64,000 bases of DNA from Marsupella aquatica (taxonomy: Eukaryota; Plantae; Marchantiophyta): the NCBI GenBank assembly GCA_973895155.1, contig OZ316895.1, positions 19,296,803 through 19,360,802 on the forward strand, written 5' to 3'. Below are positions 8,560 to 51,792 of this stretch, piece after piece. How positions within the stretch are numbered: position 1 is the stretch's first letter; each line of letters starts with the position of its first letter. The notes below the pieces were generated by a model. That model worked only from the letters and a program-made list of their open reading frames with translations. It made no database searches and was not told where the DNA came from. The translations under genes were made by a program, and so were the position numbers.

Positions 8560-11434
8560 TCTCAACGTATTGTCACATCTAGGTGATGATGGCATACCCA
8601 AAATTCTCTTAGCTTGCCCTAAGTCTTTCATCTTAAATTTTGCACTAAGTAGTGCCTTGAGCTTAACAATCTCAAATCTATCCTTGGCTGCGATAAGCAT
8701 GTCATCCACATAAAGTACTAAAACAATGAAACCAAAGATAACATTCTTCATCGGTTTAAGATACACACAAGGATCAAACACATGGATCTAATCGTCAAAC
8801 CGCTTATTCCACTGCCTTGGTGACTGCTTCAACCCGTACAAGGATCTCAGCAATCTGCAAACCAAATCCTCTTGCCCTTTCTTCACAAAACCTAGCGGCT
8901 ATCTCATGAAGATCACCTCTTCCAAGGTGCCATAGAGGAAAGTTGTGACAACATCCATCTGATCTAGCAGTAGACCAAATAAAACAAGTACACACAATAG
9001 CCGTATTGTAGAGTACTTAGCAACTGGTAAGAAGACCTCATTGTAATCCACACTTTTCTCCTGCGTGAATCCCTTGGCTACTAACCTAGCCTTGTAGACC
9101 TTTGATCCACCTCCTATGGAATGATCCTTCAGCTTGTAAATCCACTTGTTGGCCACCACTTGCTGGCCTTCAAGAAGCGTGACCAACTCCCAAGTCTTGT
9201 TGTTCTTTAGTGACTGCATCTCTATTTGCATTACTGCAGTCCACTTTTGCTTCTACTTTGAAGCACTTGCCTCATGATACAAAGAAGGCTCTCCTTCTTC
9301 CAAGATAAAGCCATATGATCATCTTCAGGTGCAATGTCAACATCATCTAGTTTAGATAAATCTGCCCATTGTCCATACTTGGTAGGAGCTCTAGTAGAAC
9401 GACTGAAAGTTCTCTAGTAGATAATTCAGGCTGATCTTCTACTACTGCTGGATGAATTTGAGGTACACCAACATCAATCTACTTCTCTTGTTCCATCATA
9501 GGAACTAGCTCCATACCCATAGCATCTCTTTCTCTTTTGTCATGAACATCATCATGACTTATCTCCCCCCTAACCGAGTCCGAGATAGGAGATTTTCCCT
9601 TGTCAATATGGGAGCCCTAAGAACTCTCTCCCTCCTTTGATGATCTGGATTCATTAAAGGAAACATCTCTACTGACAATTAACTTAGAGATTACTGGATC
9701 CCATAACCTATAACCTTTTACACTTTTTTGATACCCAAGAAAAATGCACTTCCTTGATTTGGACTCCAACTTAGACCAAAGCTGGGAAGGTGTAAGCACA
9801 TAAACATCACATCCAAAAACCTTCAGATGTGAATAATTTGCTTGACGCCCGTACCTCATTTCAAATGGCGTCTTGAATCCAATTGCATTGGATGGAGATA
9901 AATTTACAAAATAAGTTGCAGTGTTGATAGCTTATGCCCAAAATTCATGTGGTAAGCATGATTGGCTCAACATACTCCTCGAGCACTCCAATAGTATTCG
10001 GTTGAGCCTCTCAGAAACACCATTCTACTGAGGAGTATAACTTATTGTGAGATGGCGTGTAATCCTTTGCTTTTTACAATTAATATATTCCAAATTCACC
10101 TGAACCATATTCACCACCGTTATCGGATCAAAAATATTTTATCTTGTTACAAGTCTGATTCTAAACTTGGGTTTTTCACCCCTTAGAAGTGGCAAAAACA
10201 TCAGACTTATTATGTATTAAATAAATCCACATATACCTTGAATAATCGTTAATGAACGTGACACAATAAGCTCTTCCAGAATGTGAGGGAGTAGGGTTGG
10301 TCCCCACACATCACTATGTACATACTAAAGTATCTCCTTGCTGGTGTGACTTTCAACTCCAAAAGGTTTTCTGTGTTGCTTTCCAAGCACACAATTCTCA
10401 CAGAAATCTAACAGTTTACAAGATTGCAAATTAGTAAATAATCTTTTTTTCTGAAGAACAACCAAACCTTTTTCACTCATGTGACTCAATCTGAAGTGCC
10501 ACAGTCGGGCCATCTCCTCATGAGATAAGGTTACACCGGCTTCATCACAGACTACATTGCCCTCCAAAATGTATAGATTTTTATGTCTCTTTCCCTTCAA
10601 CACAACTTTAGTACTAGCTAAAACCTGAAGAACACCATTAGCAAAACTCCATCAATGACCATTTGCTTCTAACTTATTGCAGCCAAGGATAGGTTTGAGA
10701 TTGTTAAGCTTAAGACACTGTTCAGTGCAAAGTTTAAGATGAAAGACTTAGGGCTAGTTAAGAGGATTTTGGGTATGCTATCATCACCTAGATGTGACAA
10801 TACGTTGAGACTCGGGGGTCTCACTATATGGGGACCTTCCCATCACCTGTGATGTTTTTAGGTCTACTTTGTAGAATTGTATTGCTCAGTCTACTACAAA
10901 AGCTGAGTATGTTGTAGCAATGGAACAAGCAAAGGAAGCTATTTGGTTGGATAGACTTATCACTGAGATGGGATTGTCACAAGGGAATGTGAAGCTCCAT
11001 TGTGATAGTCAGAGTGTTCTTCACCTTGTTGTGAACCAAGTGATGGATAGCAGAGTGAAACACATCGACATCAGGTACCATGTTATCAGGTAGGGTGTGT
11101 CTGATAATCAGTTTGAGATAGTCAAGATTGATGGTAAACTCAACCCGGTTGACGCTTTGATCAAAGTGATTCCTTTGGAGAGGTTCTCAAGACACCGTGC
11201 TACTTTGCAAGTTTTGCAATTGAAGCACAAGTAGAGCTACTTAGCATTTTTGTGACTTATTGTATATGGATTCCTCGATCCTGTTAGGCTACGGCTTAAT
11301 TCTAACTAACCCTTAGTTAACCCATGGTGGTTTTTAGGGGGAAACCTATTTAGGTGATTGTCTAGAATTTCCCATTGAGGATACTACATTGTAGCAATTT
11401 GTCAAATCCCCAAGACTAGAGTCAAGGGGGAGTT

Positions 11435-11726: not shown

Positions 11727-13121
11727 ACCCCGCCCCCGGACCCCGGCCCGCCGTCCCGGCCCGTCCCCCGACCCCCAAGCTTTACCCCGGGCCCCGAACC
11801 CGGACCCGGTCCCAACCGGATTTGGAGCCCGACTCTTTGGACCAGGGGAGACCAGGGGACCAGGGGAGATCGGGGGGAGTGTGGGAAGTGTCCGGGGGAG
11901 TCCGGCAAGTGTCCGGGGGATACAGGGGAGTTCGAGAAAATTTTGGCAAATATATGCTAATCTTTCGATTTTAGGGCCATCATTTGACTATTTTACATGC
12001 CCAGCAAGCCTTCAAGGTGCCCATAAACGTGGCATAATGGTCAAGAAAGACACCAAGATTTGGGAAACAATGCTCAACCTCGTGCGACCAAATGATGGTA
12101 GAAATTGGTAGAAGTGCACGTCCAGGTAGACAGCTTGAGGTGAGGGAGGCTGCGAGACTTCGAGAGTGTGTTGCCTTCCCGGGGCTGCGTTGGTAGAAGC
12201 CGCGTGGGAGCGTTTGTATGGATGTACAACAGCAACAAAGTAAATGCCGAATGCCAGCCAGTGGCCGCCGGGTTTTATGAGTTCGTTCCGTTTGAGACAG
12301 CCTTTATCTTCCTTTCTTCTTTCGAGCCGAGTAGCCCTGCTCCTTGCGCCAAATTAGGCGCGCCAAAACAGGCAATTCGCATTCGCCGACTAGTCAGTCT
12401 TCAATGCCTTGCTGACTCTTTGTACCTGTCGGCTACCTGCCTGTCTACCGGACTCTCTACTGTACCCTGTACACCGCCCTCCTAGCTCTCCCATGGCGCT
12501 CCTTCCTCACGGAGATTTCGCCCCAGAATAAGGGCTCTAAGTTTGACCTGTCTGTGTTCTTCCGCTCCAATTTAGTGCATTTCCTAGCATTGGACGACCC
12601 TGCCATCCGGGTGTTACATATACTTATACGTCCTTCGTCACATCCCTCGGAAGCCCTTGTCTTGTATTCCTTGTGCCTCTGACCAGTTTAACTGCATTCC
12701 TTTTTCCGTCTCTCTTCTGCCCCTGTACTCGAGCTGCAAATGCCATCAGGATCATCGTACCCCGTGACTGTGCATCTAGAGTGTCTAGTGTCGATCAGTC
12801 CTGACTCCTGACTGAACTCTCAGCACCCGCACAGACTTTCTGGGATAGACTCTTTTGCTCGACGTAGTGTACCTAGCTCGATCGATTCGTGGACATTGTG
12901 ACTTCATATTCAATTGCGGTGATCGGAGGACCTCGAGCAGCATTATTAGTGGAAGGTTGAGATTGGTTGGGTTCATCGTATGGTGAGCTCTTGCAGTGTT
13001 CTTTGAGCTGGTAGCGTTTGGTTTCGTACTGACTCCCGTTGAAGCACAGTCGTGGGAGAAGTAGAGTGAAATAGATACGATCGATCATTCAATCATCAGG
13101 AGGGAAGACAGCAGGCGGAAG

Positions 13122-14168
13122 ATGTCCACCATGAAATCTCTTCAATGGTGTACTCTGATTGCTCTTCTCTTTCTATGCTGCATTGTAAGCTCAGTTAGTG
13201 CACAGGGAATCTCCACGAGCGAACTCTTCAACAATCAGAACGACGAGGTGCCAACATTCTCTGGCGACGCGGGTCACCTACCTCTACGCGGGCTGAAGTT
13301 CCTTGTTGAGAATCCACAAACCATTCTCGATTATCACAACGGTCCGATCCTCACCAAGCAGAACACCGCGGTGTACGTCATCTGGTATGGCGCATTCACC
13401 GAGGATCTGAAGAACACAGTAAGAGATTTCTTCGCCTCCTTCAACTATTCAGTCGCTGGCACTCCGACCGTCAGCAGCTGGTGGAATCTCACCTCGGGCT
13501 ACAAGGATAGCAGTGGACACACAGTATCTCAACATCTGAACCTCGCAGCTGAGCTCGATGACGGCTCCTACTCGCTCGGAAAGGTCTTGAACAACTCCGA
13601 CGTTGAGCTTCTGGTCCAAAAAGCTGTCAACTCGACCTTCCCAGCCGATTCTCAGTCCGTTTATGTCGTGATGGCTTCAGCTGACGTTGATGTCGGCGAT
13701 TTCTGCATGAACTCTTGTGCTTCCCACTCAGCCACCAGTCCGGCGACGACTCCCGAAGGAAAGCAGCTACCGTATGCCTGGGTAGCCGACTCCGAGACTC
13801 AATGTCCCGGAAAGTGCTCGTGGCCGTTCGCCAAGGCTCAGTATGGACCCGACACTCCAGCATTGGTGCCACCAAACGCCGATGTTGGTACCGATGGAAT
13901 GATCATTAATCTCGCCACCATTCTCCCTGGTTGCATGACCAACCCATTCGATAATGGTTTCTATCAGGGTGATGCTGCTGCACCGCTCGAGGCTGCTTCC
14001 GCTTGTGCCGGTATGTTTGGACAGAATTCGTACGCCGGCAATCCTGGGGTTCTACAAACTGATAAAATTTCTGGAGCCAGTTACAACACTGAGGGTGTGA
14101 ATGGGCGGCGATTCTTGCTGCCCGCTCTCTGGGAAGCCTCTTCTCGTACTTGCACTCCCCCTTCATAG
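13122..14168 (+). CDS. EXORDIUM / phosphate-induced protein 1 (PHI-1) family secreted cell-wall protein, intronless
   Basis: Intact 348-aa ORF with a hydrophobic signal peptide and family motifs LDYHNGPIL, VYVIWYG, PTVSSWW, FCMNSCASH, QCPGKCSWPF, PPNADVGTDGM, TNPFDNGFYQG, APLEAASAC, GASYN, FLLPALW. Confidence 0.95.
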   Translation: MSTMKSLQWCTLIALLFLCCIVSSVSAQGISTSELFNNQNDEVPTFSGDAGHLPLRGLKFLVENPQTILDYHNGPILTKQNTAVYVIWYGAFTEDLKNTVRDFFASFNYSVAGTPTVSSWWNLTSGYKDSSGHTVSQHLNLAAELDDGSYSLGKVLNNSDVELLVQKAVNSTFPADSQSVYVVMASADVDVGDFCMNSCASHSATSPATTPEGKQLPYAWVADSETQCPGKCSWPFAKAQYGPDTPALVPPNADVGTDGMIINLATILPGCMTNPFDNGFYQGDAAAPLEAASACAGMFGQNSYAGNPGVLQTDKISGASYNTEGVNGRRFLLPALWEASSRTCTPPS

Positions 14169-27494: not shown

Positions 27495-30400
27495 CATCAG
27501 CGGGATTCACTCAATCTTGACTAGCTCAAAAGTTTTATCAGACATTGCTTGCCTTATAAAATGGTACCTGATATCAATCTGCTTCACCCTGCTATCCATC
27601 ACCTGGTTAGCAGCCAAGTGAAGAGCACTCTGACTATCATAGTTTAGAGTCATTTTGTCATGCTCTAAACCCATCTCCGCGATCAACTTGTCCAACCAAA
27701 TTGCTTCCTTTGTTGCTTCTGCTGCTGCAACATACTCTGCTTCTGTAGTAGACTAAGATATACACTTCTGCAAGGTAGATTTCCAACTGATAAACCTCCT
27801 CCAAGAGTAAATATAAATCCAGTTGTAGACCTCCTTGTGTCCAGACAGCCTCCATAGTCAGAATCTACATAGCCAACTAACGTTCTATCTGATCTCGCAT
27901 CAAATAGTAATGCATAGTCCTGTGTTCCCTTCAGATACCTAAGAATCCACTTCACAGCTTCCCAATGTACCTTCCCTAGATTTGACATGAATCTGCTAAC
28001 CTTGCCCATCGCTAGGGCCAGGTCAGACCTAGTACAAGTCATCAAATATATCAGACTGTCTACTGCCCTTTCATAAGGAATCTTAGCCATCAGACCTTTC
28101 TCCACAGCATCCGTAGGAGAGAAAGCCGATGATAACTTGAAATGTGAAGCTAAAGGAATACTCACTGGCTTACAGTTCTCCATGTTGAATCGTGCAAGTA
28201 CTTTCCTCCCATACTGGCCTTGACTCAAGCACAATTGTCCAGGGTCAGAGTTCCTAAAAATCTCCATCCCTAAGATTCTCTTGGCCTTACCAAGATCCTT
28301 CATCCTGAATTCAGCACTCAATTTCGCCTTGAGACTGTCAACCTCAGATTAATCTTTAGCCACAATCAGCATGTCATCCACATAGATCACCAGAATGATG
28401 AAACCAAATACATCATTTTTGACTGATTTCGTATACACACAAGGATCATACACCATCCTTGTAAACCTTGAGCAAACATGAAATCATCAAACCGCTTGTT
28501 CCACCGTCTGGGAGACTGCTTCAATCCATACAAGGACTTGAGCAATTTGCAAACTAAGTTTTCTTGGCCCTTCTTCATAAAGCCTAGTGGTTGTCTCATA
28601 AAGATCATCTCTTCCAAGTTGCCATAGAGAAAAGTAGTAACAACATCCATCTGATCCATCACTAGACCAAAAAACATAACAAGCTGACACAAGATCCGAA
28701 TTGTGGAATACTTAGCCACCGGTGAAAATACCTCATTGTAGTCCACTCCTTTCTCCTTAGTGAACCCCTTGTAGATCTTATCTCCACCGTCTGAAGGACT
28801 GTCCTTCAACTTGTAAATCCACTTGCTGTCCACCACTTGCTGACCTCTTGGAAGCTCTACGAGCTCCCATGTCTTGTTGTCACTCAAAGATTGCAGCTCC
28901 CTCTACATTGCTGCATTCCACTCATGCTTCTGCTTTGAAGCACAAGCCTCACTATATGAAGAAGGTTCTCCTTCTTCCAGGATCAAAGCCATATCATCTT
29001 CATCAGGTGCAATGTCAATATCATCTAGCTTAGATGAGTCTGCCCATTGACCATACCTGGTAGGAGCTCTAGTAGAACGACTGGAAGTTCTTCTAGTAGA
29101 TGACTCAGGCTAATCTGCTGTTGCTACTGGCTGAATTTGAGGTACCCCAGCAACAATCTGCTCCTCTTGTTTCATCACAGGAACCAGCTCCAACCCCGGA
29201 GCTTCTCCATCTCTCCTGTCATGAATAGCATCATGACTAATCTTCCCCTCAACCCGATCAGGGATGGGAGATTTCCCCTTGTCAGAATGAGAGTCCTAAG
29301 AACTCTTCCCCTCCTTTGATGATCTGGATTCATTAAAGGACATATCTCTACTGACAATTAATTTACAGGTTACTGGATCCCATAACCTATAACCCTTCAC
29401 ACCTTTCTGATAGCCAAGGAAAATGCACTTCTTCGATTTGGACTCCAGCTTGGATTGAAGCTAGAAAGGTGTAAGCACATAAGCATCACTTCCAAAAATT
29501 CTCAGATGTGAGTAATCTGTTGGACACCCGTACCTCATTTCAAATGGCGTCTTGAATCCAATAGAACTGGATGGAGAAAAATTTACCAAATAAGCTGTAG
29601 TGTTTACAGCTTTAGCCCAAAACTCATGTGGTAAGCATGATTGACTCAACATACTCCTCGAGCGGTCCAATAGTGTTTGATTGAGTCTCTCAGAAACATC
29701 ATTCTGCTGAGGAGTATAACTTGTTGGGAGATGGCGGGTAATCCCTTGCTCCTTACAATACATTCCAAATTCCCCGGAACTGTATTCATCGTCGGTATCC
29801 GATCGAAGATATCTCACCTTACTACCAGTCTGATTCTCTACTTGGGCTTTCCACTCCTTAAAAGTGGCAAAAACATCAGAGTTACTGTGTAGAAAGTATA
29901 TCCACACATACCTTGAGTAATCGTCAATGAACGTGACATAGTATAACCATCCAGAATGTGAGGGAGTACGGGCTGGACCCCACACATCATTATGTACATA
30001 CTCAAGTACCTCCTTGCTAGTGTGAGTTCTAACTCCAAAGGGTTTCCTATGCTGCTTCCCAAGCACACAATGCTCACAGAATTCCAACTTACAAGATTTC
30101 AAATTAGAAAGTAATCCTTTATTCTGAAGAATAACCAAACCTTTTTCACTCATGTGACCCAAACGGAAGTGCCACAGCCGGGCCGTCTCCTCATGAGATA
30201 AGGTTACATTGGCTTCATCACAGACTACACTGCCCTTCAAAACGTATAGATTGTTATGTCTCTTTCCCTTCAATACAACTTTAGTACCAGTTGAAATCTG
30301 AAGGACACCATTAGCTGAACTCCACTGATGGCTATTTGCTTATAAAACTCCAAGTGAAATGAGATTTTTCATCATGCTGGGGAATATATTTCACATTTCT

Positions 30401-31476
30401 CAACGTTCTTACTGCATCATCAAACATCTGAAATCTTATAGATCCAAGTTCAACTACTTGACATGGGATTCCATTTCCCATCAACACTGACCCGTTGGAA
30501 ACTGTGTAAGAACTGAAAAAATCTCTCCTAGAGCAAATGTGAAAAGTACATGCGCTATCTAGAATCCAGTCATCACTACCTGGATTTGACACTACGTTGA
30601 GAGCATAACCTTGCATCACAATATGTCATCATCATCAAGTAAATCTACCTCATGCGAGCTTGATGTCGTGTTAGCAGATGCAGTAGGGACCTTTACTCGA
30701 CAATCCCTTTTCATGTGGCCAGGCTTGCCACAATTCCAACATGCAAGAGGCTTCCTCTTTTGCAATTTCCCTCTGGATTTAGATCTCCCCCGTGATGTAG
30801 ATCTAAACTTATTCTGCCCATTTGTGCGCTGCGCTGGTCTTCCCTAGTTCACATTCAACGTAGTGTCAGAAGAAGATGCTGTCTGTGATTGACCTAGCTT
30901 CTTCTGAGCATCATCAGACAATAAAGAGCTCACCACCTCATTATACGAAATAGACTTCAAATCTTTGTACAAGAGCACCTGTTTCAAGCCCTGATATGAC
31001 GACGGTAAGGAGCTTAGCAAAAATAAGGCCTTATCCTCATCTTCAACTCCTTTTCCCAGATTTGATAGATCTACCGCTAGACTGTCAAACTCATCCAGGT
31101 GATTCTGCAGCTTGCTTGCTTCCTTGAGCCTGAGGCTCATCAAGAGAGACTTCTTGTACAGCCGGTCTGATGCATCTTCCCGGTAGTACTTCTCTCTAAG
31201 GGCGTTGAAGAGTGATGCACAGTCGTCATAATCATCCAGCTTCTTGATGATATGCGGCTTGAGATAAAGCATCACTGCATTGACAACAATCACCTACTCT
31301 TGTCTCCACTACTTCTCAGAAAACTCCTCCTCTCCATCATACTGCTCTCGCAAAGAAAGTAGATGAGCTAAGCCCATGGCTTGTAGAACACCCTTCACTT
31401 GCTTCTCCCACAACAAGTAATCAGTACGACCATCATACTTCTCCACCTCAAACTTCACTCCTCCAAATCTAGCCAT
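27495..31476 (-). pseudogene. Copia gag-pol pseudogene
   Basis: KFEVEKYDG (gag), zinc knuckle, WILDS (PR), LWHFRLGHMS/CEHC/DVWGP/ERLN (INT), YGLKQSPR (RT), GYVDSD (RH). Confidence 0.93.
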
Positions 31477-35585: not shown

Positions 35586-35699
35586 TCATATAATTTAGGT
35601 TGTCTTCTGGGTCCACTACAAAAAAGGTTGAAGTTATAAATCACTATATTCATTAAAACTGAAATTATAAAGGATATAGGGAAATTGGGTTGGGAATAA

Positions 35700-37736
35700 T
35701 TCTGGCTTTGGGCTGGGGTCGCCTTTCCTGGGCCGGGAATACCCACCGTGATGGGGTTATCTTGGGCTTGTTGAGCCAAGGGAGGCTTTGGCGGTCAAAA
35801 CGAGCATACCACTTGATGATTATTTTGATGTGGCTTGCGAGGTATGCCTTTTCGCCGAGGTACAAGGTCTTGCTTCGCCGCTCCATCTCCTCGTGGAACT
35901 TCTTGACAAAGAAAGAATCCCACTTCCTAGGCCGGTAGTTCTCAACTTGGATTACTTGGGCAGCGAATATTTTGCCCCTTGGCTCCATCAAGTGGAGGGC
36001 GTACCTCTAGAACTCCAGTCGCTCCGCTATCTCCAGGATGAGGCATGTCCTCATCAAGAATCCGTTGTCCATTGATCCTTCAGCCGGGAAGCTAGAGGAC
36101 TGATACTTGGCTCCCTTGCCCCTGAGAGCTCGTGATTCCACCCGATTTACTCCTTTGAGTAGGCCGAAGATCATCTTGAGCCATGCCTTGCTAAGGGACA
36201 TCACTCTTCCATGCGCACGGGTTTGTTGGTGGGCCTCGTCGTAGTTCTGGATGAACTCCGTCATATCCTACCCATAGTACCTGCTAGCATTCCAAGGGAG
36301 AGAGGCAAGGTGCTCAAACCCTTGGGTCTTCAGGTAGCATGCATGCTTGGGGTGAAGAATGTTCTTGTGGACATTCTCCCCATGCGATACATGGTCAGCT
36401 TGGCCACCGCAACTGTGGCCAAAGGCAGTCGAGATACAGTCGCGGGTTCCTTTCTCTTCCTACCCCAAGACTGGTTCCCAGGGTGACTTGTAGAGGGGGA
36501 CATCTCCCCATCCTCTCTATTGGGCGGCGGCAGTGCTACGACCGTAAGTACTGGTGCTAGTGGTCACCGTGTCATCTACCAGAGCTGTCACTTGAGTCCG
36601 GGTTTGTGCGGGTGGTGACGTGTTGCCTGGCTTGTGTGTGCTCACCCCTTGAGGTTGCCGGTGTAGGGGAGGGTGAGCCTCTTTGTCCTCAGAACTGATG
36701 TTCATAGCGGATCGTACTCGGAGGGGTGGTGCGACCGGTGGTGGAGATTGGCTTGGCTGAGGCCGAGGTGGTGTTGGTGAGGGCACCAATGAGTTGGCGA
36801 TGGTTGTAGCTAGAGGAGGCGCCATAAGATTCAGCAAGTCTGAGGGGAAGCTGAGTGAGGTCAGAAAGGATATCTCACCCGTATCTACGTTACCAAACTG
36901 ATAGTCTATGGAAGCCTGAACTTTGGCGGGGATATGGTCAAAGTGGTGTTGTTGCAAGTCTATCGTGCCTGGGAGTGTGAAAACCTCGTCCGAAAGCCAA
37001 AGGAGCACTTCCTGGAAGCCAATGTACTTTGGACCATCAAAGAAGTATTTGCAGATCTTGTCGGCTTGACAAAGCTCGCTCTGGAATGGGAGGTTGAAAT
37101 TGCCGTTATAGTGAGAGCGCCCAGCTAGGCAGATGAGTTGTTCGTATTGCCTTTTGGTTTTGTATCAACGCAAGTTGACTTTGGCCAGCAACTTTGCTAA
37201 ATGATTTCCGACGGATAGAAATTGAAGCCAAAACCGAAGGGCCAAACTGGACATAATCGTGACAGACATACAAGAAATGGCGGTGGATGACTAAGGAGCA
37301 AATGAGCAAGTTGGGATCAAAGCTGGTGCAAGGAGTGAAGTGTTGATGCTTTGAGAGAGAATGGCCCGCCTTTTATACCCTGAGGGCTCGTCGGCCGAAC
37401 GACCCCTTCCTCTTTCCGATAGGCCGATCCCTTCATGCTTGCAGTGTACCGGCCACTCCGCAAGTCCGGGTCAGAGTGTGTCAGCAAGCCGCCCCCTTGA
37501 GTTGTTGTACAGACCCGAGGGGGCTTCCCTACACGCTTGCAACCCGGTGGTATAAATGGCGCTCCGCTGCCAGCCCGAGCGTAAATGCTCCTTATTGACT
37601 AATGATGCCCTAGTCGTGTTTACTACCTACTTTAGTGTCGTTATGCTAATAACTACGAACTACTATGTCCATAGCGCGCATGCTAAGCACGAATTAGACC
37701 GGATCAGTCATTAACCGCCGTGCTGGCGGCGTCACA
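35700..37736 (-). mobile_element. Truncated copy of the 2644-6240 element family
   Basis: Similar to ~4535-6240 (e.g. RVESRA..GKGAKYQSSSFP..DNGF.MRTCLI.EIAERLEF), with the same right terminus GGCGGCGTCACA. The left part is missing. Confidence 0.88.
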
Positions 37737-38518: not shown

Positions 38519-38920
38519 TTAATTCTTTTCTACTTTTCTCTTAGCAGAGTCTACCTCAGACTCTACCTTAGTCAACATTAAGTTGAAAGGGCCTTCTTCC
38601 AGTAGGAATTCTACTTTGAGGGATTCGCACATCCATTCAAATGAGACAACTTTCAATGCCTGGTCTTGAATGAGGGAATTAACACCAAACCATGTCCACT
38701 TGGACATGATTGCTCTCCAAGAACCAGCAACAATGTGAGTGGTGTTGCTGGAAGCAATAGTGCAAAGCTCACCATGACGTTGAATTAGCTTTCTATGGAA
38801 AACTTCAAAACGAGCTCTTGAAAATTCATTTGGAACTAAGAAGGCATTCACACCCTGAAAAGTTGGCTTCAAAACTGAACAGGGCAAAACCGTTGGTGCA
38901 GAATCATTTCTACAACCCAT
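38519..38920 (-). pseudogene. BRCT-domain-like exon/fragment (resembles the X-family polymerase lambda BRCT)
   Basis: FQGVNAFLV...RARFEVFHRKLIQRHG...TTHIV...KVVSFEWMCESLK fits the BRCT pattern (F.G..F, G, THxV, WxxxS). Confidence 0.6.
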
Positions 38921-40336
38921 GGCACAGTCAACCCTAAAGCTAGAGGCCCTATTGTCCTCTGCAACAATGTGGAGCTTACTTGGATCCTAGCCTCCCCACA
39001 ACTTTTGTAGTCAAATGAGAACCCAAACTTCTGCTCACCACCTATTATTGAGTGAATTTGCACATTTCATAGTGCACAATTAATATATATTAGCGACTGA
39101 CCAGCGCACTAAAAACAAGAGTAAAAATTTGTATCCATGAAACAAGTGTTATCAAGCCTTAAGCCAGCTAGCCAATGTTCGCAAACAGAATAGACATTGC
39201 AAAGTCCACACAAAATTCTACATTTCTAACATGCCAAACAAAGCACATGGCAATGCTCACCAATAATGCCCAAGCCCAATCCTTCTTGACCAACAATTTT
39301 CACCCACATTCACCTAGATCGGTCCACTATCCTGTCTCTGTACATTCAAATCAGTCACACAGTTGAATAATACTGCACAACTTCAACTATAGTACATACG
39401 CGACCAGCCCATAATTGAAAAGAGGGGAGATTCACACCTGGAGTATGCTGTCTATTGCACAACACTGATATAGAATCCAACCCTAAACAACACGATTCGA
39501 GACCCACCAGTAAGTGAACTCGCCCTACAAAGACAACAATGGAGCAAAAAATTCATAATGTAGCCCTTGCACAATAATGTTGACCTGCACTGTGACATTG
39601 TTCACAGTCTTACTACCAACAAGCTTTCTCAACACTTTCTATGATGCAATCTTGGGATAACGTACATGGCCAAACACAAAATGCAAGTAGATGCCTATGA
39701 TCTTAGAAATAGCAACAAACTCCAACAAATGACAATGTAATTCTAGATGAACCAAGTGAAAATGGTAGGCAACAGTGAACAAACCTTGACTTTCCGAACA
39801 TGGCTAGCAGTAGCAAATGTCAATCAAGCTCCTGAAAATGCCATGCAATAGCTTGGCAACATGTAAACCTATGGCAGCAGAAAATAGCACAATCAAGTAT
39901 CGAGGTCGAGCCAAACTGCAGTCAACAATGAACCCCAACTTGAAGCCATGGCACACAACAAGCAATTGGCAACAATGATGAGCAGCAAGCACACAAGAAT
40001 GGCAAGCACAGGTAATAGCAACATTCATACCTTCATAGGACAGTTGTCGTGCATATACACATCGCTACACAACATACATCCAGACATAGTTACACTGCCA
40101 CATCACAAACACAAGAGAATGAAATACAAGTGGAACTCATGTCCACACATGTCCAAAACCTATTGCCCCCCTAGCTGCGAGTAAGGTCCCCTTACTCTAG
40201 CTAGCCATGAGTTCTACAAGGTTGATATACACCTTGTTAGGTGTGAAGATCAGGAGGCCGAGTGCAAGTGAGCCCCATCAATCACCTACCTGCAATCCAT
40301 ATCTTCCAAGAGAACACAACTGAGAACTAGTCGGAT

Positions 40337-40489
40337 TCACCGACACTGGGGACACAACCATGATCCACTAGGAATCACCTGCAATGGTGGTGTCAAACAT
40401 GACATGTGTCATCCTCTAGAATACTTATCACAAATCAACATAGTAGCTGCTCCCTGAGCAAATCCACACAACATACATTTCAAGCCAGC
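40337..40489 (-). pseudogene. PHD finger at the C-terminus of the Gypsy integrase
   Basis: Hand translation: CMLCGFAQGAATMLICDKYSRG*HMSCLTPPLQVIPSGSWLCPQCR* (C4HC3 pattern, one Cys degraded to Tyr). Confidence 0.85.
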
Positions 40490-40559: not shown

Positions 40560-43353
40560 GCGCACATGATCCTTCCAAACCATACTTTCGCGCCCCTCCA
40601 ACATCAAGACACTAGAAGGCAACACTTCATGCACATGTAAGATTGTCCGGCCTGCGGTCACATCAAGTGTTGTGGGTGCTGTCTGCTGCAAATAAACATA
40701 ATCACTAGGATAAAATCATCGAATGCTTGCACGGTAACCTCCTCCACGAATAGTGGCATACCTCAAAGTATCACAATGTTGGGCAATGGCAAAGTTGTCA
40801 AAAGCCATGGACATCACTTGCTAAAATACCCGTGCTTTCTCTGAACACACCTTGACCCAAACATCAGGATCATTCAAGTTCACAACTGATGCAACATTGA
40901 TCACGACGAATAGTTACTGGAAAATCTGGCTCTCTACCATAGAGCAAAAAGTAAGGTGAGAAGGATGCAAGTGATGCTTGCCGACTGAAACGGTAGCCCA
41001 TAGCTAACCAAGGTAGCTGGAGATCCCAATCTCCCAGATGACCAACCTGCAAGCCATACTTACGCAATCCTCTCTTCACAATTTGCACAACTCTCTCAGC
41101 TAATCCATCTGCCTTAGGATGATCATGAGAGGTAGTACAATGATCAATCAGAGCTTGTTCACACAAACTCTCAAACTCTCCACAGAACTCAGTTCCCTAA
41201 TCAGTCAACACCTCAGCTGGTGCTCCAAAATGACTGAGTACGCGATCCAAAAATGTAGCAGCAACTCCTTCACTGGCTTTATCTGGCAATGCCACTAGCT
41301 CAATCCACTTGGAGAAGTGCTCCACCATGACCAAAACATACTGATTATGACGTTGGGTAAGAGGTAATGGACCAGCAAAATCCAAACTCCAACAATATCC
41401 CAAACCCATGATCGGCAACGGATGCAACTGGGGAGTGGGAGCATTAAATGATGCTCTCACTCTATCACATACTACACACTTAGCTATCAACTGCTGGACA
41501 TGAGTGTGCATACCACGCCACCAATACTGTGTCTGCAACAAGCTATAAGTGCGCTTCACACCAAAGTAACCCAACTCCTCGTGCGCATGTCGCACCAAAT
41601 GTACTCGTTGTGATGGTTTTGGTACCACCAACACCCTACCATCATGCAGTACTCTCAGAAGATGGTTTCCCTCCCATCAAAACCTCTTGGCGCTTTGTAG
41701 AACCCTGTCACGTTCCTTGGCATCAACACTGCCAACAATAGAGCCACTGCGCAGATATTCCAACACTCTCACATCATTGTGAATATCTTGCTTTCCAGAA
41801 GTTACCTCACCAACATCCACATTTGAAGACTCATCATCCACTCCATCCAATGAGGTAGAGTCCATAGATCCACTATATGCTGGCACCCAACAAAGAAAGG
41901 CAGATGCATGCCATCCTGACACCATCTCCTTATCTGACTCATCATGCCATTTGGCTCCAGTCTCATCCTTCTGACTGGTACATGGGTTGCGGCTCAACCC
42001 ATCTGCATCCAAGTTCACCTTTCCAGGTCTATGTACAACCTGGAAATCATACTCCTGCAACAACAATGCCGATCTTGCAAGCTTCCCAGTAAGCTTGTCA
42101 GACTCCATTAACCACTTGAGAGGCTGATGATCAGTGATCAAAGTGAAAGGATTACCAAGCAAGTAACAGCGGAAGTGTGCCACAGCCCACACTGCTGCCA
42201 AACACTCTCCCTCATAAGAGCTATACTTAGCCTCTGCTGAATTGTTTGATCTATTGGCATATGCCACAACAAACTCATGCCCTTCATCATCTTTCTGAGT
42301 CAGCATTGCTCCAAATCCTACTCCACTCCAATCAGTGTGTAGCTGAAATGGTCTGCCTGAAATGGGTCTTCTCAAAATAGGGGATGATGCCAACCTTTGC
42401 TTCAACTCGTGAAAGGCATGCTCATAGTCATCACCCCAAGTCCATTCTTGATCCAACTTAGTAAGTATGGTTAAAGGTTTAGCAAACTGGCTAAATTCTT
42501 TAACATACCTCCTGTAATAGCTCGCCAATCCCAAGAATGCACGAACTCTGCTCACATCAGTAGGATGAGGAATCTGTGTAATGGCCTCCACTTTAGTCTA
42601 CTGTACACCCAATCTCCCTGGGTATATAGTGTGACCCAAATACTCAATCTGGTCTTGGAAGAACTTACACTTGCTAGGATGGAGCTTCAACCCATGTGCT
42701 CTCAATCTCTCCAACACAATCTGCAAGTGTTGCTGATGTTCTTCCACAGTACAAGAATAGATCAAAATATCATCAATATAACATCTGACAAAATCCAAAC
42801 CTGCAAGGATTTGATCCATGACTCTCTGGAACTCAGCTGGTGCATTCTTGAACCCAAATGGTAAGAACAACCATTGATACAAACGATCTTTGCCATATGA
42901 ATCAATCCCCCAGAATGTTGTCTTGGACCTGTCAGCATGCCTAATTGGAAGCTGATGGTACCCTGCCCTCAGATCCAATGAATTGAAAACCTTTGCATGC
43001 CCCACAGCATCAAAGATCTCCTCAAGTGTGGGCATGGCATATCAATCAGATTTTGTCTGGCGATTAATAAGTTTGTAATCACCACACATGCGTCTATCTA
43101 TGTAATTGCCATGCACATCTTTCTTGGCTGGCATCATTGTGGCAAATGCATACTCCCCATATGAAATCTCCACCAATCTAGCCTCCAACAAATCTTGAGT
43201 TTTGCTTCGAATCAGAGCTCTCTCCATGTCACTATAATGGTATGGTCTATGAAAGATTGGCGCATCACTAGCCAATTCAATCTGAATACCAGGGCCCTTC
43301 AATGTCCCCAAATTCTTCACGATGCATGCAAAACAATTCCAATAACTCTTCAA
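40560..43353 (-). pseudogene. Gypsy RT, RNase H and integrase (interrupted by stops)
   Basis: ORFs 43042-43353, 42598-43035, 41677-42591, 41197-41634 and 40870-41166. Confidence 0.95.
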
Positions 43354-43669
43354 GAATCAATGCATGCACCGTCTCTCCTCCCCTGTCAACTTAGGACCAA
43401 TTTGTGGCTCCCAACTCTCCACCAGATCCCTAATGTCTTTTTGTAGGGTAGAAGAGATAGCCGATGATTGCTATTTAGCTGTAGATTGAGCAGTCCCTTC
43501 CTGCTCAACAATCTGTCCAGCCTTGGCCAATCCTGCCATAGGTCCATGGACTGTCTGCTCGCCCCTAACTATGGTCATCACTGTCTCAATGAACGGCAAG
43601 CTCACCAATGGACGATCAATAACACTAGTAGAGCGCATTCGCAACTGTTCAACTACTCCCAAGCTAATA

Positions 43670-44600
43670 ATCCAAGTCAAGCAATTCAAATCCATGACTT
43701 GACCAAGGACCTAGCGGCATGAACTCTCTGACACCGAGGCAACTGCAATGGTGCCTATCAAAAATCATCAGCAATAGGTTCCACTAACTGCTGGAGAGCT
43801 ATGTCCCACACAAGTCCAGGACCACCTGCTCTGAATGCATATGAAGCAGAGTGGCTCACAAGAGTGGGTAATGCACAACATGGGCGCCCAACTACATTGA
43901 CCACTGCCAATGGAGGTCTATCAGGTTGGGTCACACCCTGTGCACGACACCCTAGATCCAAAATATCATCCACCACTAAGGCTGGTGAGCGTGGAATGCT
44001 GTCAAATATGCACTTCAGCACCTCACATGGGATCAAATTAGTCCATCACAAGCATGGACGATGTGCACAAGAACCCACCCGTGCAGCATCCAATAACACA
44101 GCAGATTCAATCCAAGACCTCACCTGGTGAATACTGGCAACAATCCGACAATAATCATCACCTAGCAATGGCAAATTCTCCAAAATATATGTAGGGGACT
44201 GTGTCTGATGTAGCTAGAGATGATGCAGCACCCGTAACATCTCCCAAAACAATGCAGAGCGTGGATCATGAAGTCCATGCCCAACGCCAGCTCTAGATTG
44301 GCCTTGACATGGCCAACTAACAATCACCAAATCAGTGGGACCAACACAATGCAGATGATCCGCCCCCAACAATGAAATATCAGCAAGTAGTGCATGCTAA
44401 TAACCTTGAACAGCATCCACTGGCAGCAATTGTGGATATCTATCCACCAACATAGCCATATGTTGGAATGAGACCCTCCGTGCTGTCTCATCTGTCTCCA
44501 CATACAAATAACAACGCACAGGAATTCCTGCCTGAAGAACAACAGCCAATCCAGTGCTAATCCCACCAAATAGATCCAACAAGAAAATACCCTCTAGTGG
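43670..44600 (-). pseudogene. C5 DNA-cytosine methyltransferase domain inside the Gypsy pol
   Basis: Motif I LLDLFGGISTG (LDLFGG at 44562-44579); II YLYVETD; III DI; IV DLVIVSWPCQG (WPCQG at 44301-44315); V GLHDPRSALF; VI YILENL (ENL at 44172-44180); VIII LDAARVGSCAHRPCL*WTN; X VLGQVMDLNCL. Motifs I-VIII lie in one frame broken only by stops. Confidence 0.9.
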
Positions 44601-47600
44601 ATACTGCCAAGCAATAGGAGTGGTATCCAATGGTGAAAGAGTCACCGGTCCATTTGCACGAGACTACTCTGCTCCTGACTATGGTGTAAAAGCATGACGT
44701 AATGCGTCATGTACCAATCATGTTGTTGCTTGTGGCAAGGCCTGTCCAGTGCCCCACACTGGTGGTGTCACACTACCAACAGGGTAATCCCCGCATGATC
44801 TGCTCCTCATGTGACACCTCCAATCGTGGAACATCTGTTGCATGTGCATTACCCTCAATCAAAATCATCGGGTCTAGTAATCACACCACTTAATGCTGCC
44901 AAAGACAGTGGTGTAGATTTAGGGCCTCCCACAGGTCCACTAAATCACACTGGCAATTTGCTCAATCGAGCATCTCCTGACTGCCAATCAGGTCTATATG
45001 ACACTGATTCATCCCAAAAATCAAGAATAAATCCCATGGGGTAGAGCATTGTACATCCCACCAACACATCATATGACAATGCCTTAGTCAAAATAGCTCG
45101 TGCCTATATCTATGAGCTATTTGTCGCATGACCTTCCTGAATTCTCAAATCAAGTGGTCTCCTGGTGATATGCTGTGTAGGTGTAGGTCCCCCCAATGAA
45201 ATCTCAATGGGAAAGGGACAATCCTCCAAATCCTCTGGATGCAATCCCAACCCACGTATGGTAGATTTTCCCAACATCAAGGGCTGAGCACCAGTATCCA
45301 ATTATTATAACACTCTCTTTGGCCGGTATACTGCTCCAAAAGGCCCAACTAATCGGAAGATACCACTCCGATTATCCATGGATGCAACACTAGGTTTAGA
45401 CCTAGTCCTCTCAAATGCAGGGCGTGCTGGTAAATCCACCAACCTCATTGCTGCTGCATGCCATGTCTCACTAGTAGCAGTAGATGGCATGGTCTTCATT
45501 GCTTCAACACTGCAAGCTGGTTCTGCATGGGAAGCAACAATCGGAGTGTCCTCATAGAGTGTAGCTGCCAATCTGAACACTTCTGCAGGACCAATTCCCA
45601 AGTTCAACATGTCTATTGCTAAAAATAATGGGGTGCGCACTATGGTAGTAACCGCCCCCAGCAAGGTACCTGTCATCCCTCTACATCACTACCTGATTCT
45701 GCCAACTGAATCACCTCTCTAAGGATCCAACTCTACAACTGCTCCACGGGGCTCAAGAACTTTGGCTGCCCCACATGTCAAAGCTGTTGTGCATCAATAT
45801 GTGTAGTGCCACACATGAATCCCATGGTGGCAAGGTCTCCATCAGCTCCATAAGATGTGGAAGGACCATGGGATGTGGAAGGTCCATAGGATGTAGATGC
45901 CCCATCACCAAAAGTAGGTCTCACTTGGGAACTAGCCATGGCAGCTAGCTGTTGCTCCAATTGAGCAATCTTAGCATCCTTTGGATCTATGGTTACAGCA
46001 GGGGTAGCGTCATCTCCCTGTCTCCCTACATGTGGCATGCCACGACCACGTCCACCACCTCTACCTCCTCCCCCTCTTCCCTGATCATGTGTACGGGATC
46101 CTCCTCTTTGTAACTCAGGGTGGAGTGAGAAACACTTATCCTTGGTGTGTTCAGGAGCTCCACAATGATCACACTGTTGCTGATCAGGCGCTGATGCTCC
46201 CCCTGATCCTCTATGATTTGCGTAATATCTCTGTGCATGATCTCCACCACAGGTCCAACATCCTGACTGCGCGTTGTCTAGCATAAGAGGGCACAGGTCT
46301 CTGGCTGGTAGACTCTCATGCAATAGGCTTCTCCCTTTGGCTCTTTTGTGCAGTAGGCTATGGTGTGGATGTAGATGCAGCCTTTGGTGCTTCCTTGGCA
46401 AATCCAAAAGTCACCACCTTCTCATTCACCATATTGAGCTCAATGCGCTCATAAAGGGTAAAAACAACTGCTAATATAGGATCTACATCCCTAAGCAGAG
46501 TGACATCTCTCACTCTATGTCGCAACTCTCTGTCCAAAATTGTGTACCAAAATTGGACTGCCTGAGCCTCTATCACTCCCTTGGTGACAATGATCAATCT
46601 ACACATATGACTGTATGCCTCCCGTAGACTCTCTCCAATCTTGCGCTGAAAGTCCTGGAGACCCTTCAACTTATTAGTTCTCACACCCTGATAGTTTTGC
46701 TTAAGCACCTCAAAGAATTTCATCATAGGGTTAAATGTTGGTGCAACTCTAGTTTCAGTCATAATCACACCGGCAAGAGTAGCGGTGGATGCTGTTGGAG
46801 TGCTATTGGTGGATGGTGTGCCACTTTGGCTAGTGCTGCTAGAAGCAACAGTTGTGGCAATGGGTTGGGCAGCCGCACTAGTGCCATAGGTGATGGACAC
46901 ATAATTAGGCGACCAATGCTGCCTCCATGCCTCAATTTCAACCAAATGAGCCTTCCAAAACTCATGGTAGTCATCCATGGGTGACCCCTCCAAATACTGA
47001 AATAATCCCTTGCATGCCATGAAAGGGGTAAACAACGTGGCATTACGGAATGTCTGCATATCACACCACGTATCAAACTCCTGGATGAAGTCATCCAGAT
47101 CAATCGTGTCAACTACACCAGAGTATTGTCGTGGGCCCTTTGTAGCCCCGTACATCTCTTCCATATCCCACAACAAAGGTGCAATCACCTGATGATGAGG
47201 AGAATTGGTCATAGAGTCCTCGTCAGAATCACTGTCTAAAGCTGTGCTGCTGACTGCTACCAATGTCACTGGCCGACACTGCGCCCCACTTCGAGTGAAT
47301 CCGGTCCGTCGTCCATTGGGTAACCCAGCAGCACCAAAAGGATCCATGGTGACCAACCTAACCTAATCTATATGCTAACCCTAAGGGCAATCTGTCCCTG
47401 TCAGCAACACAAGCACTCACCATGGTGTGTTGGGCATCACTCCAACATCACCAAGAGAGAAATACGTAGCACAACTAGAATGTCCAGTTGCAAACCCGGA
47501 TCACTCCTATAGAATCAAGCGCCCAAGCTGTAGTTTGCTATGAAGAACCAAAAACACACTTAAAAGGTCTTCAAACTCGGTATTCGTTCCCGTAAAGAAC

Positions 47601-47894
47601 AAGATATATGGGGTTGGTTTGATAGATTTAAACAACAATAATAGACTTAAACTATTTTCTACACATAGTAATCAAGTTTGATTACTTTACTAAGGTATTT
47701 TGAAGATCGCTCCACAGCGGTGAGAAGTTTTCAATGATATCTCAGCATCATGTAACCATAAATTAATGAAAAGGGAATGATTAACAAAATACACCAAAAA
47801 TATCTTAAAGTATGCTAAGGGAGTCTGGAATTGACCAAGGTTGCTCCTTAAACATGAGTCAAAATGAAAAGACTTAAGGATTCATCCACAAGAG

Positions 47895-50380
47895 AATTGG
47901 ATCCTATGCGGTGACTTCAACATGACAGAACGGAGAGAAGATTCCATCGGCAATTCTCCCCTAATCAAAGGTAGGGAAGGCGAGTTCTGGCGGTTCCTTA
48001 AAATGAGGTTTGATTTGACTGATGCTTGGGAGGTACGTGGTGGGGCTACTGGCCCCCGTTTTACTTGGAGGCGAACGCGGAATGGGGACCTGATGCAGTC
48101 AAGGCTGGATCGATTCTACTTAAGTGAGCAGGGATGGTGGACAGGCAAAATTATGGAGCTCCTACACGATGGAGGGTCGGCTCTGTCTGACCATGATCCG
48201 GTGATACTGACTTTGCAACTCACAGGGACGGTGCTGGCAGGAGAGAGGGGGAAATTCAGGTTCTTTAGGGCCAATCCGGCTCTTTTGCGAAGGGAGGAGG
48301 ACTTGCTACTCTTGGAGGGTGCCTGGAAGGCTGGCATTGTGAGCGAGGACCCCCATTTGCGCTTTGCCCTAGCCAGTGGAAGGCTACGGAGGAGGTACAT
48401 TCAGCTACAAGCTAAACCTCGAACGGGTGAGGAAGAGCTAGCTTTCCTAAGGGCCAAATTGCGTTCCCTGAAACTATCAATCTTGGACTCTCATTCGGAG
48501 GATGCAATTCTGGAATACATGGATGCTGAAGACTCATTGCATGCATTGGAAATTGAGGAAGCTCTAAGAGGCCGAAGATTGGCCCGAGTGAAATGGCTGG
48601 GTGAAGGAGACGAATCCACCAAGTTCTTTTTTGCCACTGTGAAAGCAAAACGCTTGAGAGAGGCAATGTCCTCTCTGGTCAAAGATGATGGTAGCGTGAT
48701 TACTGATCCTCGTTGCATTCTGGAGGAAGTGGAACGTTTCTGTAAGGATCTTTACTCGCCTCCTGATCCTTCACAGGCTGAGGTGTCTAAGCAAACAAGA
48801 GAACGAACGAGACTTTTGGGTCACACACGATTTTCCATTTCAGCTGCTGAGATATCACAAATGGAAGCACTGCCATCCGCACAGGAGGTGAAAGATGTTC
48901 TATGGATGCTACCCTGCGACAAATCCCCTGGTCCGGATGGATTGACAGCGGAGGTATACAGAGCCTATTGGGAATTCACTGGTAAGGACCTAATTGAAAT
49001 GATCCAAGCATTTTGGCTCACTGGGGTGCTTGATGCAGAGATTGGTGACGGCATCATCAAATTCATCCCTAAGAAATCTGATAAGCGATTTCTTAAGGAC
49101 TGGCGGCCACTTACAATGCTAAATACCATTTATAAAGTCATTGCTGAGATCCTTGCTCTGCACCTGAAGCCTATCTTGCATAAGATTATAAGCCCACAAC
49201 AAACTGGCTTTATCCCAGGATGACATATCTTGGAGAATATATCACTTGCTTGGGTCACATGCGACTGGGTGCACAATAGGAAGATAGAAGCATTGTTTTT
49301 GAAGCTCGATTTTGAAAAAGCTTTTGACAGAGTCAACCACAATTATATCTGGGAATGTATGCATCTACTAGGGATTAGTGGATGCTTCATTATGCTTGTA
49401 CGTGCCCTGCTTGCTCACCCATCATCCAAAGTCCTGGTGAATGGCTTCCTGTCGGGCCCAATTGTTCTCAAGCGAGGAGTGCGACAGGGCTGTCCACTAT
49501 CACCACTGCTCTTTGTGATCTCCACTCAGCCTCTAATGGATTTCCTGGACGCTGAGATGGATGCGGGGCGACTCAGCGGCTTGAGAATCTTAGAGGTGCT
49601 CACAGTCTGTTACAGGCTTTTTGCGGACGACGTGGGAATGTTTATTCTTGCCTCTGAGGAGGCCTTTGAGGAGGCCACCCAGGCACTGGGATGCTATGAG
49701 ACTGCATCGGGAGCGCGGCTTAACTTAAAGAAATCGGTGGTGATCCCCCTAGCAATGGATGAGATCCCAGAGTGGCTCTCCAACACTGGTTGCAGGGTTA
49801 GCAAGAAAGGAGAGGTGCAAAAATACCTGGGGGCGCCCTTAGGTATCGGCCTGCATACAGAGCAGTTGCATCAATTCTGCCTTGACAAGATCAGTTCTAG
49901 ACTCTCGACCTGGTCTAACAAGCTTCTTTCCTTTACTGGCAGAATGTTACTAGTTAAACATGTCCTGCAAGCTATCCCTATATATCATGCAATGTATCTC
50001 AAAGCACCTGTTGGGCTGGCTAAGAAGCTGATTGCTCTTAGCAGAGATTTCCTGTGGGGTTACAATTCCGAGGGGGGCAGGAAGGTACCGCTGGTGGCTT
50101 GGGCCACGCTTGCTCTTCCCAGAGTTGAAGGGGGTCTTGGCTTCAAAGACTTTCAAAGCCACTCTGATGCCTTGCTATCTCAATGGTTCACCAAAGCTCT
50201 GAATTTCCCTAACCTTGAATGGGCAAGAATGCTTGAGGCCAACCTGTCACTGATGGGATGGATGAATTACAAGGCAATTAGACGTAATGGCTACACCTTT
50301 CAAGATAAACTTCTTCTTTGCACCCCTCGTTCATTTGGTGGTCTATCCTATACAGGTGGTCTGTGGAAGAGCTGGGAGCT
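47895..50380 (+). mobile_element. L1-like LINE ORF2 fragment (endonuclease C-terminus and RT), truncated at both ends
   Basis: WILCGDFN, SRLDRFY, SDHDPV (APE); KSPGPDG, WRPLTML, KLDFEKAFDRV, RGVRQGCPLSP, LFADD, KYLG; one internal stop at ~49221. Confidence 0.95.
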
Positions 50381-51792
50381 AGTAAGAAACTTAACGAATT
50401 CAACTATTCCTAACTTTCTACTCCTGGCTCAGAAAACTCTAAAATTTTGCCAACAAGTTTTCCTAGGTACAGACTACCTACTAAAGAAGTCTCATAACTT
50501 TTAAAGCTCTAGAACTTATTTAGAAAAATCAGAAAAGATGCACTATTCTTAAAAGACTAACTAAAAGGACTTAGACTCTCCTTCAAGCTTGTTGTCGGAT
50601 GTCTTCTGGCTCGAGTAGCTCCACTACTGTGACAATCCGATTCTGTGTAACTTCCATCAGCTCAGCCTGGCGTGGAGATCCTTGAGAGTAGGGTAGGCAT
50701 CTCAATTGTCTTTCAGGATACATCAGGGGCATTCTCTTAGATTAATATGTCTATTCGAAGAGCTTCTCTATACATCCCAATCACATCATAGTTATTACAA
50801 GTAGCAGCATATACTTGGGATAATGGTATAGGAATTCATCAGAATTCAGCATCCTAGAATAGAAAGGTCAAAGCCTTCATTTGACATCTCTAAAGTACCG
50901 GTTGAAACTGGCCAGAGTTTGAGAGGTGACATTGTTCCATATTCTCTGTTTCTCAACTAATGTGTTGGTTGAAACAAGTACGACCTTAGGCTCTCAAGGG
51001 ATGTAAGTTTTGGGGAGAAGTAGATTTCTTACTCTGCATGTGAAAAGAAATCACAAAGTCTAGAACATAAGCTGCAAAATTCTCAAAATATGCCAGAACC
51101 AAATCTGGATCCTCCACCTCCACATCTCCTTGAAGTAGCATCACAGCAAGGTGGGTCGGAAATAGATAGAGTCAGTCTAGAACTCATCAAATTGTGCCAT
51201 CTCCACTCTGGAAGTTCCAAAATACATGAGATCGAAGATATAACTGGCCTTTGTCTTCTTGAGATAGTAGTATCTCCAGAACTCTCCAACCGGTGGTCTG
51301 TTGGCCTGCATTATCTTACAGGTCTCCACATACCTATGCACTTGGGACTCTGGATGTCTCGGGTATCTGCTCTCGATGGTGGCATTCCGGGGTGTCTGAA
51401 TAGATGAGGTGACAATTGCTACTAAGTTTGGATTGGATCTTAAGGCAGTATCAACATCTTCAAATCCCTGCCTTGGGGATGACTCAAGAGAATTATCATA
51501 AGATCTATAAGTTTCACCATCTGAGGGTGGATCAGAGTCTTCAGGAAGATCCTTCCTAACAAAAGGGTACTCATACTGAGTCTGGGTGTAGGTGGGTCCT
51601 TCCGTAGGTTCATAACTAGAATCAAGACTGTAAGACATGCTAGCACTTGGGCACTGTTGTATCAAGTTGTTGACCACGGATACTATTTGTCGAGGTTCAC
51701 ACTGTAGTATCTCTAGCAAATCATCCACAATAGCTATACAACTGATACTTTTTGTCACTAGAACAGGTTCACTTGATTCTAAGAGAGGGGCT

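Follow-up and report, generated by a model that had tools for sequence, protein, structure and literature searches.

Our analysis confirms the presence of a Ty3/Gypsy retrotransposon with its own DNMT3-type C5 cytosine methyltransferase (DNMT) between protease (PR) and reverse transcriptase (RT) in a stretch of 64,000 nucleotides from Marsupella aquatica (GenBank assembly GCA_973895155.1, contig OZ316895.1, positions 19,296,803 to 19,360,802 of the forward strand), the whole of which we call the window. Comparison with relatives establishes the identity of the domain, its slot, its co-inheritance with RT, the purifying selection on it, and the conservation of an in-frame stop codon, followed by CAA-YY, between DNMT and RT. 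Taking the evidence together, we consider it probable that the window holds a dead, 5′-incomplete copy of an element in which the DNMT ends ORF1, the conserved stop is likely read through rarely, and the DNMT, made at the level of the coat protein, likely methylates the cDNA.

Table 1. Features of the retrotransposon, in window positions
Feature	Positions	Strand	Details or basis
Gag-like region	45886..47347	(-)	start ATG 47347; two CCHC-type knuckles at ~46260-46130
Aspartic protease	44954..45433	(-)	DTG 45298-45290; contains stops
DNMT3-like C5 cytosine methyltransferase domain	43666..44582	(-)	motifs I-X, canonical order; 4 stops
Variable linker, the C-terminal tail of ORF1	43474..43665	(-)	ends of relatives' proteins
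Conserved in-frame stop in readthrough-type context	43465..43473	(-)	TAG-CAA-TCA (CAR-YYA); relatives' loci
Possible long-range RNA stem 3′ of the stop (tentative)	43365..43460	(-)	prediction
RT + RNase H	41959..43413	(-)	RVT_1 E 2e-34, RT_RNaseH E 2e-33
Integrase (H2C2 zinc domain + rve core)	40900..41620	(-)	Integrase_H2C2 E 1e-14, rve E 5e-13
PHD finger, end of pol	40343..40477	(-)	PF00628 E 8.8e-10
Polypurine-tract-like G run	40166..40178	(-)	common to relatives
Repeat segment B, ending CACGACA	40045..40160	(-)	element end or internal B/A junction

The order Gag, PR, RT, RNase H (RH) and integrase (IN), with an integrase of the DDE type, is that of Ty3/Gypsy elements and is found across the window copy and its relatives (Table 1). 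The gag-like region is collinear by tblastn with the N-termini of proteins P0006, P0008 and P0015; a Pfam search of this region of the window gave no gag match, and a Retrotrans_gag match in the relative P0010 is weak. The window protease matches Asp_protease_2 with E 0.079, short of the cut-off, and is further identified by tblastn. RT-RH is in frame with motif X of the methyltransferase and the linker that follows it, and similarity to RT begins at ~43413. A first-pass annotation, made from the letters of the DNA, had placed the DNMT collinearly between the protease DTG (45298) and RT on one strand, and this is where it lies.

The same annotation had read C5 methyltransferase motifs, including the catalytic PC, from a minus-strand translation, a reading borne out by a PF00145 match at 44690-43761 (E 9.7e-7; score 29 bits, cut-off 22; X placed at stops). 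On the minus strand, motif I (LDLFGG) starts at 44579, the motif IV PC is at 44312-44307, the motif VI ENL at 44180 and motif VIII (HRPC, with the second Arg replaced in this copy only) at 44063-44052; motif X (GQVMD) starts at 43704, shifted by one frame. The motifs are not permuted as in DRM, and PCQ, ENV, HRxR and motifs IX and X are preserved in most of the 20 intact relatives listed. When a profile of 16 relatives was searched against PDB sequences, DNMT3A/3B/3C entries ranked first and made up ~27-29 of the 32 matches (best E 1.9e-12), with a plant methyltransferase entry, M.HaeIII and DNMT2 behind them. An AlphaFold model of the relative P0002 (pLDDT 86.6) gave the same picture in Foldseek, where all 32 listed matches were DNMT3 (best E 2.7e-18, to DNMT3B/3A; TM ~0.8 by target length). 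By sequence and predicted fold, the domain is DNMT3-like, with DNMT3A/3B as the nearest solved structures.

The window copy is dead, as had been proposed at first pass. Four in-frame stops (44399, 44216, 44048 and 43713) fall within the DNMT domain, and five stops within RT-IN. A frame change before VLGQVMD had been reported; it is present, at 43764, but what had been taken for a single frameshift is a deletion of ~6 codons, in this copy only, that removes motif IX (P0001 residues 623 to 630), and it is not the only one: there are further frame changes at ~44861 and ~44780 in the PR-DNMT interval, and others near 46300 and 45790 in the gag-like region. Contigs from four public runs (two studies) number in the hundreds to thousands across the whole element stretch; they differ from the window mostly by transitions, which is the pattern that deamination of a decaying window copy would leave. 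Of 248 variant places, 40 are listed, and none of those listed lies within 43465-43473. The copy is also 5′-incomplete, and no LTR pair, left element end or second copy of repeat segment A or B was found in the 64-kb window. A 5′-truncated LINE (endonuclease and RT; 47868-50501, plus strand) begins ~520 bp upstream of the gag ATG, and may mark the loss of the left end.

Elsewhere in the window, the sole clear host gene seen is an intact-looking EXORDIUM/Phi_1 gene (13065-14165, plus strand; PF04674 E 1.5e-102), which points to a streptophyte host. An open frame downstream of the element (38522-38986, minus strand) has a weak BRCT match (E 0.017, short of the cut-off) and could be a gene exon or a fragment, and two diverged repeat copies (4039-6240 and 35668-37736, minus strand; 73-77%) contain long frames with no Pfam match. 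Three stretches, at 8500-10870 and 27500-31300 (minus strand) and 1100-2632 (plus strand), are presumably Copia-type elements, judging by their motifs; one Copia-type copy lies between 193-nt inverted arms (8505-8697 and 10673-10865) that are 92% complementary.

The many stops and frame changes of the window copy might invite the reading that the DNMT is an independent insertion, or a captured host gene, peculiar to this copy, and that the stop at 43473 is ordinary decay. Comparison with relatives makes this extremely improbable. We found 32 longer homologues, 20 of them from named sources (Marchantia polymorpha, 16; Calypogeia fissa, 2; Sphagnum, 2), that are collinear with the window over gag, PR and DNMT; the closest, P0001, has 76% identity across the domain. 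The DNMT occupies the same slot in these three named bryophyte genera and in metagenome loci, for which the best 80 of 94 stretches were retained; wherever flanks are present in those 80, the order is Gag-PR-DNMT-RT-RH-IN-PHD, and only a few rearranged or deleted copies differ. The contigs of the four public runs span the DNMT and the start of RT alike (30/30 bins), the DNMT and RT trees are congruent, and the stop recurs at the homologous codon. Slot conservation and the recurring stop thus refute independent insertion with a decay stop.

The first-pass proposal that this lineage occurs in land plants is confirmed by the named relatives, and its view of the DNMT as part of the polyprotein rather than a separate insertion stands in so far as slot and trees make the domain integral to the element, but DNMT and RT do not simply form one polyprotein, since a conserved stop separates them. 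The relatives compared keep the domain; the loci were gathered by DNMT similarity, so that sisters lacking a DNMT could not appear among them. In Marchantia polymorpha there are uninterrupted Gag-PR-DNMT gene models (e.g., P0006, Mp_4g09160); Mp_8g17980 is another annotated Gag-PR-DNMT model. The Marchantia models P0005-P0026 appear to be ORF1 of the element, although their annotation is either hypothetical protein or DNA methyltransferase.

Between lineages, the DNMT domain has a dN of ~0.28 against a dS of 1.6-1.8, the latter near saturation, and on these estimates the domain is under purifying selection. The wider superfamily comprises 1450 representatives at E up to 0.001, and among the best 150 of these many carry the domain between RNase H and integrase instead. 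Trees were built with FastTree from retroelement sequences only and midpoint-rooted; they took 30 (DNMT) and 20 (RT) RH-slot proteins, and domains covering at least 240 residues only. The window, L015, L062, Marchantia P0012 and the main metagenome family form one clade for RT (support 1.0), and the same grouping forms one clade for DNMT (support 0.953), with the window domain nested among liverwort and moss sequences, which points to a bryophyte as the probable host. The two trees agree, and by this comparison the domain is co-inherited with RT. Proteins with the order RT-RH-DNMT-IN-PHD (P0040, P0063, P0118 and others) lie apart from the PR-slot group in both trees. Continuous PR-DNMT-RT proteins are seen in outgroup proteins such as P0067, P0193 and P0211, and in Closterium models; a cluster look-up gave species for 6 of the 20 proteins queried (Closterium 5, Marchantia 1). 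Named matches in the wider protein search include Cymbomonas and Haematococcus, and the viral contigs searched contained two distant methyltransferases only and no family member.

The stop that separates DNMT from RT, which the first-pass annotation did not mention, is a TAG at 43473-43471 in the window, in the context TAG-CAA-TCA (43473-43465). Uninterrupted proteins of the relatives end 78-100 residues past the start of motif X, and P0001 ends at the position of the window TAG; because the intact relatives' proteins end at the stop, the DNMT belongs to a Gag-PR-DNMT ORF1. Merging near-identical loci left 66 clusters, 50 of them with a junction stretch; 47 of these 50 belong to the main family, and 41 of the 47 cover the site by alignment. 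These 41 read TAG-CAA-CCC (28), TAA-CAA-CCC (11), TAG-CAA-CCT (1) and GAG-CAA-CCC (1), so an in-frame stop is present in 40 of 41 distinct copies, and it recurs in two further lineages, L015 and L062. We conclude that the TAG at 43473 is not decay. The 41 main-family loci are closely related and count as one lineage, which makes about four lineages at the DNA level, Marchantia being known through protein ends alone. Eleven further Gag-PR-DNMT proteins with ~50% identity (P0194-P0204) end, at the protein level, 90-149 residues past the domain without RT.

The codon after the stop is conserved as well, with CAA directly 3′ in 42/42 aligned main-family columns. L015, which is about as far from the main family as the window is, reads TAG-CAA-CCA, and has 2 stops in total within 2064 codons of one frame. 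L062 reads TAG-TAG-CCA, without the C after the first stop; one guess is that its second TAG derives from CAG by C-to-T change. The linkers between domain and stop are 74, 96, 110 and 135 codons long and differ in sequence, and all leave RT in frame. No other in-frame codon carries a stop in more than 26% of copies, if we set aside a stop in 23/27 copies at codon 533, which we attribute tentatively to the frame of the ruler locus L018 with its anomalously divergent RT. Among 966 decay stops, CAR-YY follows in 16 and CAR-YYA in none.

Judging from this pattern in the sequence, RT-RH-IN likely needs readthrough of the conserved stop. The tobacco mosaic virus readthrough consensus, UAG-CAR-YYA (PMC3159437), is matched by TAG-CAA-TCA in the window and TAG-CAA-CCA in L015; the CAA-CCC of the main family differs at the last base, and L062 does not fit. 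A predicted RNA stem 3′ of the stop appears in 4 lineages in differing registers, and we keep it tentative because its z-scores range from +1.3 to -3.0, in 1-8 of 39 windows shifted controls score as high or higher, and covariation is weak (-0.38 kcal/mol). Alternatively, the stop could be real and RT-RH-IN could be reached by reinitiation at a downstream ATG, by a splice that skips the stop, or from a separate transcript, all of which we think distinctly unlikely. Reinitiation is possible in the main family and in L062, which have an in-frame ATG two codons (+6) and four codons (+12) after the stop, respectively, but there is no in-frame ATG within 75 nt of the stop in the window or L015. Gene predictors do splice over the junction in the Marchantia/Sphagnum models P0012, P0018, P0025 and P0031, and a PR-RT spacer is spliced in Ogre elements; donor-like and acceptor-like sites, however, differ in place from lineage to lineage. 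Neither these routes nor a separate transcript sit well with four linker lengths that all keep the frame, or with a CAA that invariably follows the stop in the main family and is found again in two divergent lineages. We therefore prefer readthrough.

The ends of the element are described from relatives. Inserted relatives begin with TGTC and end with ACA, and among 10 independent insertions with both ends, an exact 4-bp target duplication is present in 8 and one with a single mismatch in 2. Two layouts occur, A-coding-B-NN-A-B and A-coding-B, and neither these nor the window, which has no repeat pair, show two full LTRs flanking the coding region. The DIRS-like A-coding-B-A-B layout is found in L032, L050, L053, L055 and L059. 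The A/B junction is precise in L050, L053, L055 and L059; 15-19 extra bases, like an end-joining scar, are present at L032:10838-10857 and L039:12441-12456. Self-priming has been defined by at least 10 bases just past the 5′ repeat that are complementary to a site in the repeat (PMC6317226). In 5 of 11 relatives, the sequence that directly follows the left A is clearly complementary to a site ~30 nt past a TATA box; in 1 the match is partial, and in 5 none was found. The window is without the region that would hold such a site. The polypurine run sits before B in relatives, and the window retains both the run and the B end at 40045. With the run before B and a site of the self-priming type, reverse transcription should yield LTRs of B+A. 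In relatives, however, it is at the near-palindromic B-NN-A junction that insertions end, which suggests integration of a circular cDNA cut inside the LTR. Under this circle model a mirror form, A-B-A-coding-B, should also exist, but 0/25 of the left flanks listed (some of them duplicates) show it, and the short form A-coding-B could also come from B-B recombination.

If readthrough operates as we propose, most ribosomes would terminate after the DNMT to give Gag-PR-DNMT, and readthrough of the tobacco mosaic virus type would yield the fusion with RT-RH-IN-PHD a few per cent of the time. The protease would then free the DNMT within the particle, where it would far outnumber RT and IN, and the DNMT would methylate the cDNA before integration, probably at CG by analogy with the Symbiodinium DIRS Dnmt3 domains in yeast. 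Priming may be of the Tf1-like self-priming type, and the circular cDNA may be cut at an internal palindromic site for integration, as relatives suggest. A bolder version, which we offer tentatively as falling short of probable, is that recoding in this lineage shifted to a point behind a captured DNMT3, that readthrough of a stop of the tobacco mosaic virus type rations RT and integrase, that its particles carry a methyltransferase at Gag stoichiometry, and that methylated circular cDNA is inserted by the DDE integrase at an internal palindrome.

The same expression scheme could serve a different end, with the abundant DNMT having host chromatin, target sites or RNA as its main substrate, or simply binding DNA. 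We think this rather unlikely, and it draws on several considerations. Output at the level of Gag would exceed the need of one cDNA, pol carries a chromatin reader in its PHD finger, and the Klebsormidium domain showed no activity in yeast (PMC5890265). There is also no element-specific CpG loss: CpG observed/expected is 0.30 in the element, against 0.27-0.39 in the three neighbouring Copia-type stretches and 0.45 in the LINE. Since the loss is no greater than in the Copia-type neighbours, there is no self-methylation signature, and we rejected CpG depletion as a mark of self-methylation. Fusion to Gag, on the other hand, would package the DNMT with the RNA and cDNA, and the catalytic motifs are retained under purifying selection in most of the relatives listed. 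Methylation of the cDNA is thus the role that we favor.

Among described systems, the element resembles KnitGypsy-Dnmt3 of Klebsormidium nitens (de Mendoza et al. 2018, PMC5890265) in its Gypsy domain set, its unrearranged Dnmt3-type domain, purifying selection and DIRS-like split repeats, as far as these are given in the published account. The DNMT of KnitGypsy-Dnmt3, for which no activity was seen in yeast, is described as sharing an ORF with RT and RNase H; unlike this single ORF, DNMT and RT of the bryophyte family share a frame but are split by the conserved stop. No Klebsormidium nitens sequences were among the homologues retrieved. SymbioDIRS-Dnmt3, for which the same account reports de novo CG methylation in yeast (PMC5890265), shares the Dnmt3-type domain and split direct repeats with the bryophyte family, but has a tyrosine recombinase and an RT of an unrelated class, whereas the bryophyte family has a DDE integrase. 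EpiLTRs of Cymbomonas and Euglena, like the bryophyte family, combine a cytosine methyltransferase and a chromatin reader in an LTR retrotransposon; their methyltransferase is DNMT4-related and accompanied by DAM and a chromodomain, and the preprint describes it as distinct from streptophyte Gypsy-DNMT3 (bioRxiv 10.64898/2026.05.21.726589).

An in-frame stop regulates Gag-Pol in MuLV, with 5% readthrough, and MuLV and SIRE1 are stop-codon readthrough retroelements (PMC2194720), as are Tj1/Tosmo/Tcry1 (10.1101/2022.12.06.519325). The bryophyte family shares with such elements, as they are described there, one conserved in-frame stop in a conserved context of the leaky type, which in those elements sets the Gag:Pol ratio; some of its copies also have a candidate site for self-priming of the kind seen in the Tf1/sushi group. 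By these accounts, Tj1, Tosmo and MuLV have the stop between Gag and protease, whereas in the bryophyte family it lies after protease and DNMT, so that both would be made at Gag level. The end domain also differs, being a PHD finger and not a chromo domain as in Tf1/sushi-Tcn1 elements. In the literature covered, mostly outside subscription journals, we found no description of bryophyte copies or of the conserved stop, and came upon the family only from algae (KnitGypsy-Dnmt3). The accessible text of later papers says only 'streptophytes' (bioRxiv 10.64898/2026.05.21.726589; PMC12344493; PMC11244446), and their supplementary trees might contain bryophyte sequences.

What DNMTs do in retrotransposons has been under question since 2018, and working with the algal hosts is difficult; the family is present in Marchantia polymorpha, a genetic model, which makes the question directly testable. 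A readthrough site past the protease is unlike the Gag/PR sites of the published elements compared, as these are described. If readthrough holds, the DNMT would be a product at structural level rather than a one-per-RT passenger, with consequences for cDNA methylation and for leakage onto host chromatin. In annotation, ORF1 gene models may wrongly be counted among host DNA methyltransferases, and the stop may wrongly be put down to decay. Should the bolder version hold, mosses and liverworts would have in this element a mobile source of de novo CG methylation at high dose, and several Marchantia 'genes' would turn out to be ORF1 of the element.
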